Shown: in pieces, positions 8,308 through 39,422 of the stretch
Layout: every line of letters starts with the position of its first letter
Numbering within the stretch: position 1 is the first letter of the stretch
Assembly (NCBI GenBank): GCA_044371965.1
Contig: JBILSS010000001.1
Coordinates: 1-49,762 of the forward strand
Origin: Vampirovibrionales bacterium
GTDB lineage: Bacteria > Cyanobacteriota > Vampirovibrionia > Vampirovibrionales > JAJTHC01
DNA length: 49,762 nucleotides
Reading direction: 5' to 3'
The notes under the pieces: model-generated
What the model saw: the letters and a program-made list of their open reading frames with translations, nothing else
What the model was told of the DNA's origin: nothing
Database searches by the model: none
Made by a program: the position numbers and the translations under genes

Positions 8308-8341
8308 ACTTGTAAACTTTAGCAAAGTCTAATTAACGCAC

Positions 8342-8421
8342 CGTCATTGCGAGTGAAACGAAACAATCTGTTCACCACTTGCATTATATTTACAGATTGC
8401 CACGCTACGCTCGCAATGACG
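8342..8421. repeat. Long-hairpin intergenic repeat, GTCATTGCGAG type (family copy 1)
   Basis: CGTCATTGCGAGTGAAACGAAACAATCTG, 22 nt, then CAGATTGCCACGCTACGCTCGCAATGACG. This is a ~29-nt imperfect inverted repeat. It is related in termini and architecture to 36388..36456 and 42251..42331. Confidence 0.7.
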
Positions 8422-25522: not shown

Positions 25523-25671
25523 CGCAGGGGCTTCCTCATTTTAGTGATGCTTCTTATTATAGTCCTGCTTGAGCGTTTCGTTTTGTGTGGTTTTAAAAAT
25601 ACGTTTCTTGCATGATGTGTAATTGATGGCGAGATCTTGACAAAGCCGCTTACATTTGACACAATATAAAA

Positions 25672-25840
25672 AGGGGGAGTCCCCAAGCGTAAAAGCTTGA
25701 GAACTCCGTTCAGCTATCCTCCTAGAGTTTGGTCACTAGAAGGAGGATAATTAGTAACATCGAAAGATGTTCTATATAATCCATTTTGCTTCACCTCCTT
25801 TCTGTTAGATTGGGGGGTGTTGCTTATTAGCAACCCTTTT
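25672..25840 (+). ncRNA. Candidate antisense (antitoxin-like) RNA, copy A; ends approximate
   Basis: The predicted TSS is about 7 nt after CACAAT. The RNA is fully complementary to the minus-strand peptide ORF, its SD (contains UCACCUCCUUUCU) and its start codon. It ends at hairpin GGGUGUUGC-UUAUUA-GCAACCC plus UUUU (25812-25840). The plus strand has no conserved ORF. Confidence 0.5.
25722..25784 (-). CDS. 20-aa hydrophobic peptide MDYIEHLSMLLIILLLVTKL (candidate type I toxin), copy A
   Basis: ATG 25784 is preceded by AGAAAGGAGGTGA (25803-25791) with a 6-nt spacer. The peptide has a hydrophobic core and a C-terminal K. The ORF is conserved in copies B and C. A minus-strand terminator follows: GGAGU..CAAGC-loop-GCUUG..ACUCC plus CCCUUUUUAU (25707-25662). 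Confidence 0.6.
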   Translation of the reverse strand: MDYIEHLSMLLIILLLVTKL

Positions 25841-25882
25841 AAGGCTTTTTATAAGCTAGCATAAACTTGTAACGCCTTCAAG

Positions 25883-26842
25883 TTACAATAATAAGTTCCG
25901 CTGGATCCGCCTCAAACCGTTACGACGCAAGGGACTGTTCTCAAAGGCTTGAGCAAACGCATCTTCACTCAAACTCTGAAAATACGCCCGACTGGGATGC
26001 TCCAACACCGCCCGAGGGCTAAAGGCAGGCTCCTCAGTCACTTTGGAAAACTTCAGGTTCCATGGGCAGACGTCTTGGCAAATATCGCATCCAAAGCCCC
26101 AATCCTGCTGGTTTGCTTGGATGAAATCAGGCAAATACTCATCCGTATTTTCAATCGTCCAATAGGCGATGCATCGACGGCTGTCGACCACCGTGGGCGA
26201 GACGATCGCATCGGTTGGGCAAGCGGTGATGCATCGTGTACACGTCCCACAATGCCCCGATTCCAGCGTGTTTTCGTGGGGGCTTGTATAGGCATCGACG
26301 GCTTGATTGAGGAACAACGCCCCAATCATCACCCATGAGCCGACTTCTTTCGTGATTAAAAGACTATGCTTGCCTTGCCAGCCCAAGCCTGCTTGAACGG
26401 CGAGTGCCTTTTCTAGCAAGGGAGCCGAATCCACAAAGGGACGCCCGTCTAAGCCGTCATGTTCCGTCTGTAATGCCTTTAAGACCTTACCCAATTTACG
26501 ACGCAAAACCTTGTGATAGTCTTTACCTAGGGCGTAGCGAGCGATTTTCAGATCGTCGCCTTGCCCAGCTTGCCAACCAGGGAAGTAGTTGATCGCCACC
26601 ACCACGACACTTTGCACCCCTTCCCACAAATCAGGCGGAGACACTCGTTTTTCGGCATGACGAGGCATCCAGTCCATGTCGGCGTGATGCCCAGCATCCA
26701 GCCACGCCGTCAGGCGTTGGGCTTCGTTTTTGAGGGCATCGGTGGTGAGAACGCCCCACTGTGTGATGCCCACGTCGTTCAGCTGTTTTTGGATGTCGGT
26801 GTGGGGGATCAAAGAGGGCATCCTTTTATTAAAAAGCGTCAT
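25883..26842 (-). CDS. queG: tRNA epoxyqueuosine(34) reductase
   Basis: 319-aa ORF with two ferredoxin-type clusters CGTCTRCITACPTDAI and CDICQDVCPWN, plus an N-terminal QueG-type domain. Confidence 0.85.
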   Translation of the reverse strand: MTLFNKRMPSLIPHTDIQKQLNDVGITQWGVLTTDALKNEAQRLTAWLDAGHHADMDWMPRHAEKRVSPPDLWEGVQSVVVVAINYFPGWQAGQGDDLKIARYALGKDYHKVLRRKLGKVLKALQTEHDGLDGRPFVDSAPLLEKALAVQAGLGWQGKHSLLITKEVGSWVMIGALFLNQAVDAYTSPHENTLESGHCGTCTRCITACPTDAIVSPTVVDSRRCIAYWTIENTDEYLPDFIQANQQDWGFGCDICQDVCPWNLKFSKVTEEPAFSPRAVLEHPSRAYFQSLSEDAFAQAFENSPLRRNGLRRIQRNLLL

Positions 26843-27475: not shown

Positions 27476-27642
27476 AAAACAACCTTCTCATTCACGAAGT
27501 GAATCTACTTCTTTAGGATGGAGAGGTTGGGAGAGGAAACCAACGGTTTTCTTTCCCAAGAGAAAAAGTTTACTTTTTCGACCATGTTGGGGTGGGGAGT
27601 AGATGTAAACACTGTAGTCTAGGCATCCCCCCCTCTCCCTAG

Positions 27643-27662
27643 CCCTCTCCTCAAGGAGAGGG
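27643..27662. repeat. C/G-run hairpin CCCTCTCC-TCAA-GGAGAGGG
   Basis: Perfect 8-bp stem, preceded by CCCCCCCTCTCCCTAG. Same word family as 27457..27475. Confidence 0.5.
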
Positions 27663-27705
27663 GATAAGACTTAATTACGCCCCAAACCCCAAAGGAGACC
27701 CCGAA

Positions 27706-28137: not shown

Positions 28138-28309
28138 TGGAAAGATCTGCTTTCTGTGTGTCGAAATCGGTTATTCTATGTGTCAGGAAAACAGGTTTTG
28201 TGTGTCAGAAAAGAAGGTTCTATGTGTCGAAACCCCCTATTCTGTGTGTCGGAAAAGCAGGTTTCGTGTGTCAAAAATCGACTTTCGTGTGTCGGAAATC
28301 AACGCCTTT
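28135..28309. repeat. Iteron array: 7 phased 22-bp units with TGTGTC(R)(R)AAA cores, plus one degenerate leading unit
   Basis: TGTGTC starts at 28157, 28179, 28201, 28223, 28245, 28267 and 28288, giving spacings of 22, 22, 22, 22, 22 and 21. A leading degenerate unit GTGGAAAGATCTGCTTTCTG overlaps the stop of the upstream ORF. The array ends at the proC stop. Confidence 0.85.
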
Positions 28310-30748: not shown

Positions 30749-30883
30749 GGTGGAGTGTCCTTTGCTTTGGGTTCAGAGAGTCTATTGTACTTAAAACACG
30801 ATTTTTTGACTAGGGGGGCGATTTGGGAGGAGGAAGCGACTCGACCCCTTGACAAAGCCTGCGAGATTTGCCACAATATAAAA

Positions 30884-31047
30884 AGGGGGAGTCCCCAAGC
30901 TTGCGAGACTTGAGAACTCCACGCTATCTTCTTAGCTTTTTAAGACTAATAAGAAGATTATCAGCAGAAGTAGTGTTTCTGATGTAATCATTTTAGCTCA
31001 CCTCCTTTCTGTTACAGAACGGGGGTGTTGCTTATTAGCAACCCTTT
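30884..31047 (+). ncRNA. Candidate antisense (antitoxin-like) RNA, copy B; ends approximate
   Basis: Same architecture as copy A. Terminator GGGUGUUGC-UUAUUA-GCAACCC plus UUU at 31023-31047. The plus-strand ATG is followed directly by TAA, so it is non-coding. Confidence 0.5.
30932..30991 (-). CDS. 19-aa hydrophobic peptide MITSETLLLLIIFLLVLKS (candidate type I toxin), copy B
   Basis: ATG 30991 is preceded by AGAAAGGAGGTGA with a 6-nt spacer. The sequence differs from A and C at most positions but keeps the acidic N-terminus, hydrophobic core and penultimate K. Confidence 0.6.
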   Translation of the reverse strand: MITSETLLLLIIFLLVLKS

Positions 31048-31130
31048 AAAGGTTTTCATTAGGCTAACATAAAGCCGCAAGTGATTCAAGAACACTTGAC
31101 AAAGCCTGCGAGATTTGACACAATATAAAA

Positions 31131-31302
31131 AGGGGGAGTCCCCAAGTGTACTAGACTTGAGAACTCCTTTGAAAGCTATCCTCCTAACGTTTCCACACTA
31201 GAAGGAGGATAATTAGTAACATCGAAAGATGTTCTATATGATCCATTTTGCCTCACCTCCTTTCGTTACAGAATGGGGGTGTTGCTTATTAGCAACCCTT
31301 TT
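31131..31302 (+). ncRNA. Candidate antisense (antitoxin-like) RNA, copy C; ends approximate
   Basis: Same architecture as copy A. Terminator hairpin plus UUUUAUUU at 31277-31306. Confidence 0.5.
31184..31246 (-). CDS. 20-aa hydrophobic peptide MDHIEHLSMLLIILLLVWKR (candidate type I toxin), copy C
   Basis: ATG 31246 is preceded by CGAAAGGAGGTGA with a 6-nt spacer. It differs from copy A only at Y3H, T18W and L20R. Confidence 0.6.
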   Translation of the reverse strand: MDHIEHLSMLLIILLLVWKR

Positions 31303-31439
31303 ATTTCAGGTTTTTATTAGGTTACCATAAAGCCGTAAGCCTTTCAAGCAACAACCCACGTTCACCCAAAACAATAAAATTGTGCAAAAACGTTCTTTGA
31401 GGTAAGATAAGAAACAATCATCCACAAGGAGCGTTAGAC

Positions 31440-33785: not shown

Positions 33786-34782
33786 ATGGAAGGTCAATTG
33801 GTAGCAGGACACTTGAAAAATTTTGAAGCGTGTGTTCAACGTGAAGATGATATAGAGTTTTGGTATGCTCGGGATATTGCCCCTCTTTTAGAGTACAAAG
33901 AGTGGCGTAACTTTCAGAACGTCATTGAAAAAGCAAAGGAAGCTTGTGAAAATAGTAGTCATTCATTTGCATACCATTTTGTTGACGTCAACAAAATGGT
34001 TTCGCTTGGATCTGGAGCCATAAGGGAACTTGATGATATAAAGCTAACACGCTACGCCTGCTATAGTATCCGATAGATAAAACGGTCTATGGTCTCTTCG
34101 TTGTCGCTACGATTTTTTTGTTTAGTTATGTAGGTCTATCTACACGCCCTCACAAAAAAATCTAGGCTCCTAGAATAGCCTCATAGCCTGTTTCATCTAT
34201 CGAACACTATACCTTATAGCGATGAATGGAGACCCCAAAAAACAGGCGATTGCCTTTGCACAAAGCTACTTTGCTTTTCAAACAAGAAAGCAAGAACTGA
34301 TTGAAGAACGACTCAAAACACTTGACCGCTTATGGAAACGAGAAGAGCTTACGCAATCTGAAACGAGACTGTCCGCCAATATTTACCAGCGTGGGGTGGA
34401 TGCAAGGGGTTTTGCCACAATCCGAAGTAAGGGAGACACGGCGTTGTTTGGAGGCAACTCCACAAAAGATATGAAAGAAAAACTAGGCGTCCCTGATTCA
34501 AGTCCTCTAGCAGATTATCTTCCCACCTTGACGATCGCTGCGAAGAACCTAGCCACTGAAATTACGAACCATAATGTGGAATCGAATAACCTTCAAGGGG
34601 AAAGAAAGATAAGCGACGAACACGTGACAAATAATACAAGCGTGAGGGGTTTACTGGTAGAAAAAGGGATTTTCCCTGAAGCCTTACCTGTTGAAGAAGA
34701 TCTAAAAAAGCTTAAACGAAAAATCGAGAAAGAACATAAGTTACTCAATAAAAACCCCAAGAAATTTAATCAAAAGGATTGA
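33786..34782 (+). pseudogene. dinD: DNA-damage-inducible protein D (DinD family), split by a 146-bp MITE
   Basis: The upstream part ends ...DDIKLTRYACY then SIR-stop inside the insertion. The downstream frame resumes YLIAMNGDPKKQAIAFAQSYFAFQTRKQEL... Removing 34064..34209 plus one TA restores ...LTRYACYLIAMNGDP..., the conserved DinD core. Confidence 0.8.
34064..34209. mobile_element. 146-bp MITE (copy 1) with a TA target-site duplication
   Basis: TA(34062-63)|TAGTATCCGATAGATAAAACGG...CCTGTTTCATCTATCGAACACTA|TA(34210-11). It has ~22-bp terminal inverted repeats. The core TTGTCGCTACGATTTTTTTGTTTAG...CACAAAAAAATCTAGGCTCC is shared with 39242..39387. No ORF. Confidence 0.85.
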
Positions 34783-36359: not shown

Positions 36360-36387
36360 GATGAGAATACTATGTGAAAGAGAAAAT

Positions 36388-36456
36388 CGTCATCCTGAAC
36401 GTATGTGAAGGATCTCCCAAAACAGTGGGGGATGTTTCGCTACGCTCAACATGACG
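36388..36456. repeat. Long-hairpin intergenic repeat, GTCATCCTGA type (family copy 2)
   Basis: CGTCATCCTGAACGTATGTGAAGGATCTCCC...GGGGATGTTTCGCTACGCTCAACATGACG. Confidence 0.7.
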
Positions 36457-38260: not shown

Positions 38261-39244
38261 ATGCGAAAAACAACTGGTGCCGTCTTTGGTCCTAATCACC
38301 CCGCTTTTGCGAAAGTGCTTCAAACACCCGAATTTTTACTAGGAGTTGCAGGTATTTTGGTGATTTTAGTGCTTGCCTTTAATGTCTTATTTACGTCCGT
38401 ACTGGCTTCTGCAACGCAAATTGAAAAAGACATTGAAACCAAGCAACAAGAACTCAAAGACAAAGAAGCCCTTAATGTTTTATTGGTGCAACTTAAAGAT
38501 GAAGCCGATCCAAATACGACGGATCTACTCAGTATTTCACCTGGTGAAATTGCTTCCGTCAAGATGTTTAACTTCTTGAAAGAATTAGAAGGGCTAAGTG
38601 CAGATCCCCTTAATCTACCTGAACCGCATCATCAAGTCTCGATTTTTCATGTGGAACAAGTGTTGGGTACTACGCCAACGGCGGCGACAGGAATGCCCGC
38701 GGCTCCGCCTGCTCAAGCAGGGGCGATGAAAAACATCTTTAGTGCAGAAGTCACGCCCTTTCCTGCCCCAGAACTTGAGCAATTGAAATTGAATGTGTCT
38801 GCAGAACAATACACCTATAAAATTGATGTACGTGGTTCTTATTTAGGACTCGTTAATTTTGTGAGAAAACTAGCGATTCATTCGCCTTTGGTCGGGATTA
38901 AGGGCTTGGAGTTTAAAGTCGATGCCGAAGCTCCCAGTGTTCTATTATTTAGAAACGTGCCTGCTCCAGCCCTTTCAGGAGCTTCCACCTCCAAACCGTC
39001 GATTTCAACCGCAGCGAGTGTGGTTGCTTCAGGCGCATCCCCAGGAGAAACGCCCGAAGTCACCACGCCTGTTCCTTTAAATCCCTCCAAGAAAGCCAAT
39101 ACCCCTTTGGTCTTAACTTTAACCGTGGATATTTTCTTAAGTAGTGGCAATGCAACAACTGCAAACACAGGCATGCCTTCTTCTGCTACAATAGCACCAG
39201 ATGCCAGTATGGGGACACCTCCTCCTATAGCTTCCGCTATATAG
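38261..39244 (+). CDS. PilO-like membrane protein with a Pro/Ala/Ser/Thr-rich C-terminal half (tentative)
   Basis: 327-aa ORF. N-terminal TM (LLGVAGILVILVLAFNVLF) followed by coiled coil QIEKDIETKQQELKDKEAL. The stop codon TAG (39242-44) is the first three bases of the MITE. Confidence 0.45.
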   Translation: MRKTTGAVFGPNHPAFAKVLQTPEFLLGVAGILVILVLAFNVLFTSVLASATQIEKDIETKQQELKDKEALNVLLVQLKDEADPNTTDLLSISPGEIASVKMFNFLKELEGLSADPLNLPEPHHQVSIFHVEQVLGTTPTAATGMPAAPPAQAGAMKNIFSAEVTPFPAPELEQLKLNVSAEQYTYKIDVRGSYLGLVNFVRKLAIHSPLVGIKGLEFKVDAEAPSVLLFRNVPAPALSGASTSKPSISTAASVVASGASPGETPEVTTPVPLNPSKKANTPLVLTLTVDIFLSSGNATTANTGMPSSATIAPDASMGTPPPIASAI

Positions 39245-39387
39245 TGTTTTAAATAATTTCCCCTACAGTGTCTATACTTTGTCGCTACGATTATTTTGTT
39301 CAGTCATGTAAGTCTATCTACACTTCTTCACAAAATAATCTAGGCTCCTCGTCTAGCCTACTGTACGGAAAACTCTTTAAAACACTA
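39242..39387. mobile_element. 146-bp MITE (copy 2) with a TA target-site duplication
   Basis: TA(39240-41)|TAGTGTTTTAAATAATTTCCCCTACAG...CTGTACGGAAAACTCTTTAAAACACTA|TA(39388-89). Same length and core as copy 1. The sub-terminal ~25 nt differ from copy 1 on both sides but remain mutually complementary. Confidence 0.85.
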
Positions 39388-39389
39388 TA

Positions 39390-39422
39390 TAAAACGGTCT
39401 ATGGTTGATTATTAAAATACTA
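39390..39422. mobile_element. Partial or deleted MITE derivative adjacent to copy 2
   Basis: ATAAAACGGTCTATGGT (39389-39405) is identical to 17 nt of copy 1 (34077-34093). The fragment ends ...AAAATACTA|TA, like a right TIR. Confidence 0.45.

Follow-up and report, generated by a model that had tools for sequence, protein, structure and literature searches.

A candidate family of type I toxin-antitoxin-like loci, organized like Ibs/Sib, in Vampirovibrionales

Closest described systems

The Ibs/Sib loci of Enterobacteria (QUAD/SIB repeats) encode a very short, highly hydrophobic peptide (Ibs, 18 to 19 aa) directly opposite an antisense RNA. According to T1TAdb, Ibs/Sib is the only known family in which the antisense RNA spans the entire ORF (PMC8594479). 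The repeats are about 150 to 250 bp long and occur several times per genome, with tandem copies in one intergenic region (PMC2887945), and their paralogues are divergent. We found the same organization in a 49,762-nucleotide stretch of Vampirovibrionales DNA (the window), whose modules would encode hydrophobic peptides of 19 to 24 aa beneath a full-length antisense RNA. In contrast to Ibs/Sib, the modules come from another phylum, have no similarity to it in sequence or structure, and are predicted to give almost co-terminal mirror transcripts, in which each terminator is the terminal stem-loop of the other RNA. Sib recognition is reportedly paralogue-specific, a result credited to Han et al. 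in 2010. In the modules, unlike Sib, the region from the Shine-Dalgarno (SD) sequence to the 5' untranslated region (UTR) is near-identical in paralogues, which makes cross-protection more likely than paralogue-specific recognition.

AapA/IsoA of Helicobacter and Hok/Sok are the next closest. Both have a structured toxin mRNA with an occluded SD and 5'-3' end pairing, features that are predicted in the modules as well, and both are found as multicopy, often tandem chromosomal loci. The module peptides are unrelated to AapA (about 30 aa) and Hok (about 50 aa) and are shorter, and the antisense RNAs of these systems cover just the 5' part. Full-length AapA/IsoA and Hok/Sok transcripts are documented to be activated by 3' processing; for the modules, such activation would be speculation only. 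Neither system had an Rfam match in the modules.

The first-pass annotation knew of no type I system in the cyanobacterial lineage. This holds for Melainabacteria and Vampirovibrionales, for which we found no type I system in the literature, but not for true cyanobacteria, where there are two candidates, MsoT1/MsoA1 of Microcystis (PMC12390103) and Ncl1450/Ncr1470 of Synechocystis (bioRxiv 10.64898/2025.12.20.695498). As is predicted for the modules, each combines a small membrane protein with an antisense RNA encoded in cis, within the Cyanobacteriota/Melainabacteria group. However, MsoT1 has 63 aa, two predicted helices, and an antisense RNA over its 3' end only, and Ncl1450 has 36 aa and an antisense partner that also encodes a peptide. 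Multicopy tandem repeats are reported for neither, and both lie outside Vampirovibrionales.

Consistently with the earlier remark that the modules resemble no recognized family, Rfam, Pfam, and NCBIfam gave no match. Nothing in Rfam reached its gathering score on the modules, and raising the E value limit to 10 brought up nothing but noise under the thresholds, namely PyrR (27.9 bits, with a gathering score of 54), an Enterococcus sRNA, and snoRNAs. Six peptide variants searched against Pfam and NCBIfam at E values up to 10 had no match. The Sib covariance model did not match either window locus at E values up to 10, and BLASTP of the peptides against IbsC gave no alignment. Likewise, we found no toxin HMM or antitoxin covariance match for Hok/Sok, Ldr/Rdl, Fst/RNAII, TxpA/RatA, SprA1, and others.

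Layout of the window modules

Three homologous modules lie in the window (Table 1), as had been claimed. Modules A, B, and C align with a mean column identity of 83%, and a conserved 26-mer and a conserved 20-mer each occur exactly three times, versus 0 expected. The module starts assigned earlier stood, but the ends lie one base further, at 25882, 31090, and 31348, the last bases of the mRNA -35 hexamers. The neighboring genes are purH, queG, an MlaD-like gene, and a weakly glycosyltransferase-like gene.

Table 1. Positions of the predicted elements of modules A, B, and C in the window
Module	Feature	Coordinates	Strand	Remark
A	Whole cassette, antisense -35 to mRNA -35	25637..25882	.	Adjoins queG stop codon at 25883
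A	Antisense-RNA promoter TTGACA, 17 nt, TGaCACAAT	25637..25665	+	10/12 plus TG
A	mRNA terminator	25667..25707	-	13-bp stem 25707-25676, then CCCUUUUUA
A	Hairpin of codons 14-17, stop codon, and downstream bases	25715..25748	-	Three pairs with compensatory changes
A	Peptide ORF MDYIEHLSMLLIILLLVTKL	25722..25784	-	
A	Shine-Dalgarno GAAAGGAGGTGA	25791..25802	-	12/12 columns invariant
A	Hairpin GGGGGTGTTGC-TTATTA-GCAACCC; mRNA 5' UTR hairpin and putative antisense terminator	25813..25841	.	
A	Putative mRNA promoter TTGAAG, 17 nt, TGcTAGCTT	25853..25882	-	Conservation; below scan threshold
B	Whole cassette	30849..31090	.	
B	Antisense-RNA promoter	30849..30877	+	
B	mRNA terminator	30879..30920	-	Stem 30920-30888
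B	ORF-3' and stop-codon hairpin	30925..30958	-	CC-to-UU, GG-to-AA versus modules A and C
B	Peptide ORF MITSETLLLLIIFLLVLKS	30932..30991	-	
B	Shine-Dalgarno	30998..31009	-	
B	5' UTR hairpin and putative antisense terminator	31021..31049	.	Stem, then UUU only
B	Putative mRNA promoter TTGAAT, 17 nt, TGtTAGCCT	31061..31090	-	
C	Whole cassette	31096..31348	.	Tandem, 5 nt after module B
C	Antisense-RNA promoter	31096..31124	+	
C	mRNA terminator	31126..31167	-	Stem 31167-31135
C	ORF-3' and stop-codon hairpin	31177..31210	-	
C	Peptide ORF MDHIEHLSMLLIILLLVWKR	31184..31246	-	
C	Shine-Dalgarno	31253..31264	-	
C	5' UTR hairpin and antisense terminator	31275..31303	.	Sole copy passing terminator scan
C	Putative mRNA promoter TTGAAA, 17 nt, TGgTAACCT	31319..31348	-	

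Every module has the near-consensus plus-strand promoter previously described, with TTGACA, a 17-nt spacer, and CACAAT preceded by TG (10/12). The proposed plus-strand terminator passed a simple rule in copy C but failed it in copies A and B, where just 3 to 4 U follow the hairpin. The positions of the promoter, ORF, SD, and hairpin support an antisense RNA spanning the whole ORF. At the level of sequence signals (a promoter, and a hairpin and U-run beyond the SD), the modules carry the antisense-RNA gene expected of type I systems.

On the minus strand, the 12-nt SD GAAAGGAGGTGA occurs only three times in the window, once per module, and is followed in all three by 6 nt and ATG, as first noted. 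It is complementary to 12 nt of what we take to be the 3' end of 16S rRNA here (the established 16S sequence; the rRNA lies outside the window). Each module also has the expected minus-strand terminator, a 13-bp stem followed by CCCTTTTTAT. This long stem is specific to the minus strand because of U-G pairs, and in module A the complement of the terminator is the 5' stem-loop of the antisense RNA. The motif described as the minus-strand promoter, TTGAAN, 17 nt, TGnTAnCnT, is conserved but matches the consensus at only about 8/12 and falls under the scan threshold, so our call is based on conservation and not on the promoter scan.

We found that the three window mRNAs share one predicted architecture, with z-scores of -6.1, -4.9, and -5.4. 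The hairpin over the 3' end of the ORF shows compensatory changes at three pairs. The SD is predicted to be base-paired to a CACCCCC upstream of it, in a helix that contains a C-A mismatch in the mRNA, and the mRNA is predicted to close by pairing of its 5' and 3' ends; the full-length mRNA would therefore be poorly translated. We found no covariation support among copies for the SD-sequestering helix or the 5'-3' closure; both never vary.

Peptide frame and signals across the family

Pattern scans found 19 further copies, 16 in five Vampirovibrionales metagenome-assembled genomes (MAGs) and 3 on metagenome contigs; in the hairpin-based scan, promoters, SD, and ORF were not selection criteria. 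The multicopy, tandem placement claimed for the window was thus also found in related genomes: all copies are intergenic, tandem pairs occur at three loci (the window, L003, and L005), and truncated remnants of a neighboring copy occur at several. A single genome holds five divergent subtypes, and the window and a syntenic MAG carry different numbers of copies, in genomes about 91% identical. Two scans of viral contigs gave only L016, a chance match without a module in a high-GC phage, and blastn in distant mode gave no match on plasmids and phages. These genomes also contain several other short repeat families.

The peptide is 19 to 20 codons long in the window and 19 to 24 residues across the family. 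Its N-terminus is short, polar, and mostly acidic and is followed by an 11-residue Leu/Ile/Val core that is 92% hydrophobic, an invariant Lys, and a short tail. GRAVY is 1.0 to 2.1, and the C-terminus has the pattern xK(L/R/S/N). As in type I toxins, the predicted product is small (<~60 aa) and hydrophobic and would have a membrane-spanning-type segment, its hydrophobic stretch of 11 to 13 residues being short for a membrane span. Fozo et al. searched for type I toxins by multicopy or tandem intergenic placement and a polar or charged C-terminus (PMC2887945), and the modules have each of these traits.

The ORF is maintained, as the first-pass annotation held. It is ATG-led and intact in 19/21 scorable copies despite about 45% nucleotide divergence in the N-terminal half; the copies are related, so these are not independent events. 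The two exceptions are a 23-nt deletion in L007 and another copy in which GTG alone is in frame. The SD, spacer, and ATG-led ORF together are intact in 18 of the 19 first copies and also in L014. We found frame 0 to be stop-free in all 18 unique ORFs, whereas the five remaining frames contain stops in 18, 8, 18, 13, and 17 of these sequences, respectively, and composition shuffles put the chance that five subfamily representatives would all be stop-free at about 1e-3. In the N-terminal half of the coding region, subfamilies differ in length by 3-nt gaps, i.e., whole codons, and the differences between related copies include synonymous changes of Leu codons, e.g., CTA to TTG. pN/pS did not discriminate between frames (0.46 to 0.50 in the ORF frame versus 0.53 to 0.54 in a stop-filled alternative frame), and an overlapping RNA hairpin could account for part of the ILLLV conservation. 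As claimed, the plus strand has no conserved ORF, every plus-strand frame being interrupted by stops. We rejected a plus-strand ORF that has 33 aa in copy C and 13 aa in copy A and is missing in copy B.

Conservation follows the signals. The SD (12/12), the ATG (3/3), the antisense -35 (6/6), and the antisense -10 (5/6) are invariant columns. Promoter hexamers are near-invariant while their spacers drift (mean pairwise identity, 0.60 to 0.67), which agrees with what had been seen in the window, and identity falls to 0.38 in the terminator loop and 0.31 in the linker. Among orthologues in genomes about 91% identical, differences are located in spacers and loops, and the copy C ORF is identical to that of its orthologue. 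Among copies whose detection did not depend on it, the antisense TTGACA is intact in 19/19, and the -10 CACAAT is intact in 18/19; part of the invariance of the 5' UTR hairpin is due to ascertainment by the search pattern. Decay is asymmetric and falls on the peptide side, not the antisense side, which is the one indirect hint that the peptide may be toxic: L007 lost the ORF through its deletion, and neither L005c nor L005d retains the mRNA promoter or the 5' UTR hairpin. Divergent copy L013 kept the peptide and the layout with both terminators of different sequence, and its antisense terminator sequesters the SD directly. The earlier statement that homology stops exactly at the two -35 hexamers did not carry over to the wider family, in which it often overruns the plus -35 by a few bases (CCCC). 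An upstream palindrome is also part of about half of the family copies.

Competing readings and a proposed mechanism

With moderate confidence, we read the modules from these signals as type I toxin-antitoxin loci organized like Ibs/Sib. On this best reading, they make up a candidate type I toxin-antitoxin-like family that is new in sequence. All in silico tests that the first-pass annotation proposed for this idea supported it.

An unlikely competitor is a non-toxic small membrane protein that modulates a membrane complex, with an antisense RNA that merely tunes its level. Small hydrophobic regulators of 20 to 40 residues are common among bacteria. They occur in cyanobacteria as well (PMC5126843), and the coding and antisense signals would fit such a protein equally well. 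However, housekeeping small proteins are usually single-copy and syntenic, whereas the modules are multicopy and tandem, are gained or lost between closely similar genomes, and fall into five divergent subtypes in one genome. The decay on the peptide side rather than the antisense side also speaks against it. Finally, both an antisense promoter stronger than that of the mRNA and the predicted sequestration of the SD point to default-off control.

Another possibility, which we consider improbable, is that the plus-strand RNA is the main product and the peptide is secondary or a by-product. Such a trans-acting sRNA would mimic the 16S 3' end with CACCUCCUUUC and bind the SDs of other mRNAs. Consistently with this, the invariant 12-nt anti-SD-like motif lies in the plus RNA, and the plus-strand promoter is the best-conserved element, kept where the ORF or mRNA promoter is lost. 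In contrast, the ORF is open in its own frame only and its indels are whole codons, the peptide chemistry is conserved under heavy nucleotide divergence, and L013 kept the peptide while its SD region changed. In addition, folding of the plus RNA is predicted to hide the anti-SD motif in a 7-bp helix with GGGGGUG.

We consider it very improbable that the ORF and promoter-like motifs are incidental to a selfish or structural repeat between genes, whether MITE/REP-like or a bidirectional terminator cassette. The modules are dispersed, tandem, and variably present, in genomes that have other short repeat families, and they end in a short inverted repeat (CTTGA...TCAAG). These ends, however, are simply the two convergent -35 hexamers, and we saw no target-site duplication in the flanks and no transposase link. 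An incidental ORF would not stay open in a single frame with an invariant SD and ATG at about 45% divergence, and conservation follows the promoter hexamers, not the spacers. We give almost no credence to a leader-peptide attenuator, in which an Ile/Leu/Val-rich leader ORF and terminator would control a downstream co-oriented gene, because of the identity of the neighbors and the inconsistent orientation across loci: each window locus lies upstream of a minus-strand gene and in its orientation, Leu, Ile, and Val abound in the peptide, a terminator comes after the ORF, and there are the weak, sub-threshold PyrR-site matches, but the downstream genes encode PurH and a weakly glycosyltransferase-like protein rather than branched-chain amino-acid functions, the module is convergent with its neighbor at at least four other loci (L005a, L006, L007, and L009), and tandem copies and a strong opposing promoter do not fit.

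According to the type I model, each module would be a self-contained pair of convergent, almost co-extensive genes. The minus strand would give an mRNA of about 185 nt encoding the peptide, and the plus strand an antisense RNA of about 175 nt from its near-consensus extended -10 promoter. This RNA would start at the mRNA terminator, run across the stop codon, ORF, start codon, and SD, and end at the 5' UTR hairpin. The duplex would block ribosome binding and/or trigger cleavage and so may keep a membrane-active, potentially toxic peptide off. We infer from the sequence transcription from both promoters, the RNA ends, translation, membrane insertion, toxicity, and repression. Since the segment from the SD to the 5' UTR hairpin is near-identical in full copies, the antisense RNA of any copy could pair in trans with the mRNAs of other copies.

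A broader proposal is more tentative, and we hold it at somewhat under even odds: that this is the first type I family of Melainabacteria/Vampirovibrionales, unrelated in sequence to others and combining a mirror design, a masked perfect SD, and a shared antitoxin domain. In the mirror design, toxin mRNA and antitoxin RNA would be co-terminal, each terminator serving as the end-protecting stem-loop of the other. The masked SD would be a perfect 12-nt complement of the 16S 3' end restrained by an intramolecular anti-SD. The identical antitoxin 3' domain across paralogues would create one pooled immunity network, not insulated pairs. More speculatively, the peptides could double as membrane-lytic effectors in a lineage that includes a predator of algae.

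If the type I reading is true, the module offers a compact cassette of 250 bp that is easy to synthesize and test and whose promoters, SD, ORF, and terminators are clearly delimited, and its mirror-image transcripts and perfect but masked SD would be useful cases for RNA devices. Genes of 19 to 24 codons are far under annotation cut-offs and are missed by standard annotation of these MAGs. As to biology versus detection bias, the latter would gain support from a well-defined family of unrelated sequence in uncultured Vampirovibrionales.

Layout of the modules in the window

The first-pass annotation had described three homologous modules in the window (A, B, and C), each pairing a minus-strand peptide gene with an opposing plus-strand antisense RNA. 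We found that the three copies share a mean column identity of 83% when aligned and that two long conserved words occur three times each (zero expected in the window), which bears out this homology. Each right-hand end had been placed one base short.

Every window copy carries the same plus-strand promoter, TTGACA, 17 nt, and TG-n-CACAAT, which scored 10/12 plus the extended -10 TG in a promoter scan. The putative minus-strand promoter, TTGAA(N), 17 nt, and TGnTAnCnT, was read from the sequence and falls under the scanner threshold. Between it and the Shine-Dalgarno (SD) sequence lies the minus-strand hairpin GGGUUGC-UAAUAA-GCAACACCC. The SD itself, GAAAGGAGGTGA on the minus strand, occurs at three sites only in the 49.8 kb searched, one in each module, and is followed after six bases by an ATG and an ORF of 19 to 20 codons, downstream of which a 13-bp hairpin and CCCUUUUUA form the terminator. 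Of the plus-strand hairpins claimed as terminators, the one in copy C alone is followed by a convincing U-run.

In the antisense promoters, the -35 region (TTGACAAAG) is an inverted match to the extended -10 region (TTTGnCA), giving the repeat TTGnCAAA...TTTGnCAA, which is perfect in two loci outside the window, L007 and L009. This repeat may have arisen by chance from the two promoter elements or may serve a dimeric regulator as its operator.

Coordinates of the modules and associated features in the window and in outside loci (L numbers)
Feature	Sequence	Coordinates	Strand
Module A	window	25637-25882	
Module B	window	30849-31090	
Module C	window	31096-31348	
Antisense promoter	window	25637-25665	plus
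Antisense promoter	window	30849-30877	plus
Antisense promoter	window	31096-31124	plus
Insertion in divergent metagenome copy	L013	3101-3209	
Segment absent from window	L005	3741-5697	
Segment absent from window	L006	6442-7944	
Second intergenic repeat	window	34062-34211	
Second intergenic repeat	window	39240-39391	
Second intergenic repeat	L009	2278-2429	
Second intergenic repeat	L009	5464-5587	
Second intergenic repeat	L007	3734-3882	
Long palindromic element, CGTCATTGCGAG...CTCGCAATGACG	window	8339-8421	
Long palindromic element, CGTCATCCTGAACG...CTCAACATGACG	window	36387-36455	
Short similar stretch	window	27586-27670	
Short similar stretch	window	28198-28298	
Non-syntenic counterpart of short stretch	L005	390-474	
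Non-syntenic counterpart of short stretch	L004	2345-2436	

The window holds other repeats. Five copies of a second conserved intergenic repeat (~150 nt), with inverted ends TATAGTGTT...AACACTATA, align with a mean column identity of 72%, and identity to a MAG copy reaches 97%; this repeat may represent a MITE or a further small-RNA gene. Both long palindromic elements were found too in MAG loci L004, L005, and L007, and they presumably resemble the widespread MITE-like palindromes of many environmental genomes. Two short stretches are 80 to 88% identical to their non-syntenic counterparts and could represent either additional short repeats or pieces of conserved coding sequence.

The peptide gene and its predicted antisense partner across the family

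A search of related genomes had been suggested earlier, and we found the module in them. Scanning a genome collection for the 5' UTR hairpin with its loop left free gave 13 matches, all within five Vampirovibrionales MAGs, and a profile search of the matched loci brought the copies outside the window up to 16. An independent second scan, using the antisense-promoter pattern, found three metagenome contigs; this pattern had no match in the viral contigs scanned. A single viral match to the hairpin pattern was rejected as a chance match, and the plasmid and phage collections held nothing similar to the module. Taxonomy places Vampirovibrionales in Candidatus Melainabacteria, within the Cyanobacteriota/Melainabacteria group.

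Of the first 19 copies, 18 have the SD, the spacer, and an ATG-led ORF without damage, as does L014, and L015 keeps the ORF though the contig end cuts the copy. A 23-nt deletion is present in L007, whereas both orthologues (L009 and L015) are intact. In L013, a divergent metagenome copy adjoining dnaG, a 2-nt change throws the ATG out of frame and a GTG opens the conserved frame (MDKIQQLISLIIILLLVVKL); an insertion of ~110 nt also separates the SD from the canonical 5' UTR hairpin there. No stop interrupts frame 0 in any of the 18 unique ORF sequences; for the five remaining frames, the number of sequences with stops is 18, 8, 18, 13, and 17. By composition shuffles, all five subfamily representatives would be stop-free by chance with a p of ~1e-3. 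Codons 2 to 11 have a mean identity of just 55%, yet length differences between subfamilies there are whole codons. The peptides keep to one pattern, in which M is followed by a polar, largely acidic stretch, then by a core of 11 residues (92% hydrophobic) and a Lys that never varies. Closely related ORFs differ by synonymous changes of Leu codon, for example CTA to TTG. The pN/pS of the ORF is 0.46, a measure that fails to separate reading frames and was given no weight. Taken together, the other results lead us to treat the ORF as coding, and its maintenance across copies agrees with the earlier proposal.

No plus-strand frame stays open across the family, as the first-pass annotation had claimed from the window alone. 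Its claim of conserved promoter hexamers and diverging spacers also stands for the antisense promoter: the -35 is invariant in 6/6 columns and the -10 in 5/6, and the 17-nt spacer is 67% identical. Between orthologous copies in genomes ~91% identical, differences concentrate in this spacer and in the terminator loop. The plus RNA is predicted to start within the complement of the mRNA U-run and to end at the 5' UTR hairpin; thus, the plus RNA (~175 nt) and the mRNA (~185 nt) would be near-complete mirror images. In L013, both terminators are replaced by different hairpins with U-runs, and the SD complement lies directly inside the antisense terminator hairpin. This copy keeps the layout and not the sequence.

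Genomic setting and turnover

All module copies are intergenic. Their window neighbors are purH, an MlaD-like gene, queG, and a weakly glycosyltransferase-like gene. The Ile/Leu/Val-rich ORF raised the idea of a leader-peptide attenuator, which is ruled out because module orientation relative to neighboring genes varies between loci.

Tandem pairs occur in the window, L003, and L005, and beyond several copies lies a stump, the truncated antisense promoter of a next copy. In L004, L010, L014, L003, and L002, such stumps lie just past the mRNA -35 and end after the -10; in one, AACAATGACAAAGCTCACGACATTTGACAC, TTGACA is mutated to ATGACA. They resemble what would remain after tandem arrays collapsed. 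The window is ~91% identical over several kilobases to one Vampirovibrionales MAG contig, which has an additional tandem copy adjoining the copy A orthologue, a further copy past queG adjoining a DpnI-like gene, a copy B counterpart truncated on the mRNA-promoter side, and, next to the copy C orthologue, a pentapeptide-repeat gene that is not in the window. Segments of MAG CANGYO010000001.1 that are absent from the window, encoding a DpnI-like restriction enzyme and a pentapeptide-repeat protein, adjoin module copies; therefore, the modules border variable regions.

The defects observed to date affect the peptide side (ORF deletion, mRNA promoter loss, and shifted ATG), in small numbers. Among copies found without selecting for the promoter, the antisense TTGACA is intact in 19/19 and CACAAT in 18/19. 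This asymmetry of decay, small as the numbers are, is the one expected if loss of the antisense RNA were harmful.

About half of the modules (in L004, L005, L010, L011, L014, L001, and L006) have a palindrome of the form CCCTCTCC-loop-GGAGAGGG, after which come A-rich sequence and GCCGAACCCC, in the 40 to 60 nt upstream of the antisense -35. In L005c and L005d, which are truncated, the same palindrome stands in place of the mRNA-promoter end. It may act as an insulating hairpin or as a site of recombination.

Predicted RNA structure and relation to known systems

The three window mRNAs share one predicted fold (z-scores, -6.1, -4.9, and -5.4), which comprises a closing helix (5'-AAAGGG/CCCUUU-3'), the 5' hairpin, a helix pairing CACC-CC to the SD GG-GGUG, a hairpin within the N-terminal coding part, and a hairpin joining codons 14 to 17 to the stop-codon region, with the terminator. 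In the stop-codon hairpin, three pairs have substitutions in both partners (CG to UA in 4 and 6 sequences; UG to GC or AU in 4), and the terminator covaries at apical and basal pairs. The 13-bp terminator stem is specific to the minus strand because of conserved U-G pairs. The SD-masking and end-to-end helices do not vary across the family and hence show no covariation, so these modeled helices are conserved but unproven. In the plus RNA, CACCUCC pairs with GGGGGUG in a perfect mirror helix of 7 bp, including a U-G pair.

From these features, we propose that a strong constitutive promoter would drive an antisense RNA complementary to the entire peptide mRNA, SD and start codon included. The mRNA would come from a weaker promoter and would mask its unusually long SD by folding. 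Pairing of the two RNAs would block translation and probably lead to cleavage of the duplex, and a drop in antisense RNA would allow the peptide to be made and inserted into the membrane. Since the segment from SD to hairpin is near-identical in all full copies, antisense RNAs could cross-react in trans between copies.

In organization, the modules are nearest to Ibs/Sib, the only family whose antisense RNA covers the ORF from end to end according to T1TAdb (PMC8594479); Ibs peptides are 18 to 19 aa, and Ibs/Sib loci are tandem intergenic repeats (PMC2887945). We found no match of the modules to Sib or other antitoxin RNA models, no toxin HMM match to the peptides, and no alignment of a module peptide to IbsC. 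Membership in Ibs/Sib thus fails, and the earlier statement that the modules belong to no recognized family is upheld.

Type I systems have been reported in Proteobacteria, Firmicutes, and Tenericutes. We found no report of them in Melainabacteria in the literature, and in that group the claim that none is described stands; for the cyanobacterial lineage as a whole it needs updating, given recent candidates in Microcystis (63 aa, two helices; PMC12390103) and Synechocystis (36 aa; bioRxiv 10.64898/2025.12.20.695498). We are confident that the modules are a real pair of peptide gene and antisense RNA. That they function as type I toxin-antitoxin systems, as first suggested, is supported by sequence as a candidate reading, and we lean toward it. 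The original observation is confirmed, and the modules are supported as a candidate family, new in sequence, within an established type of system that has not been described for this lineage.
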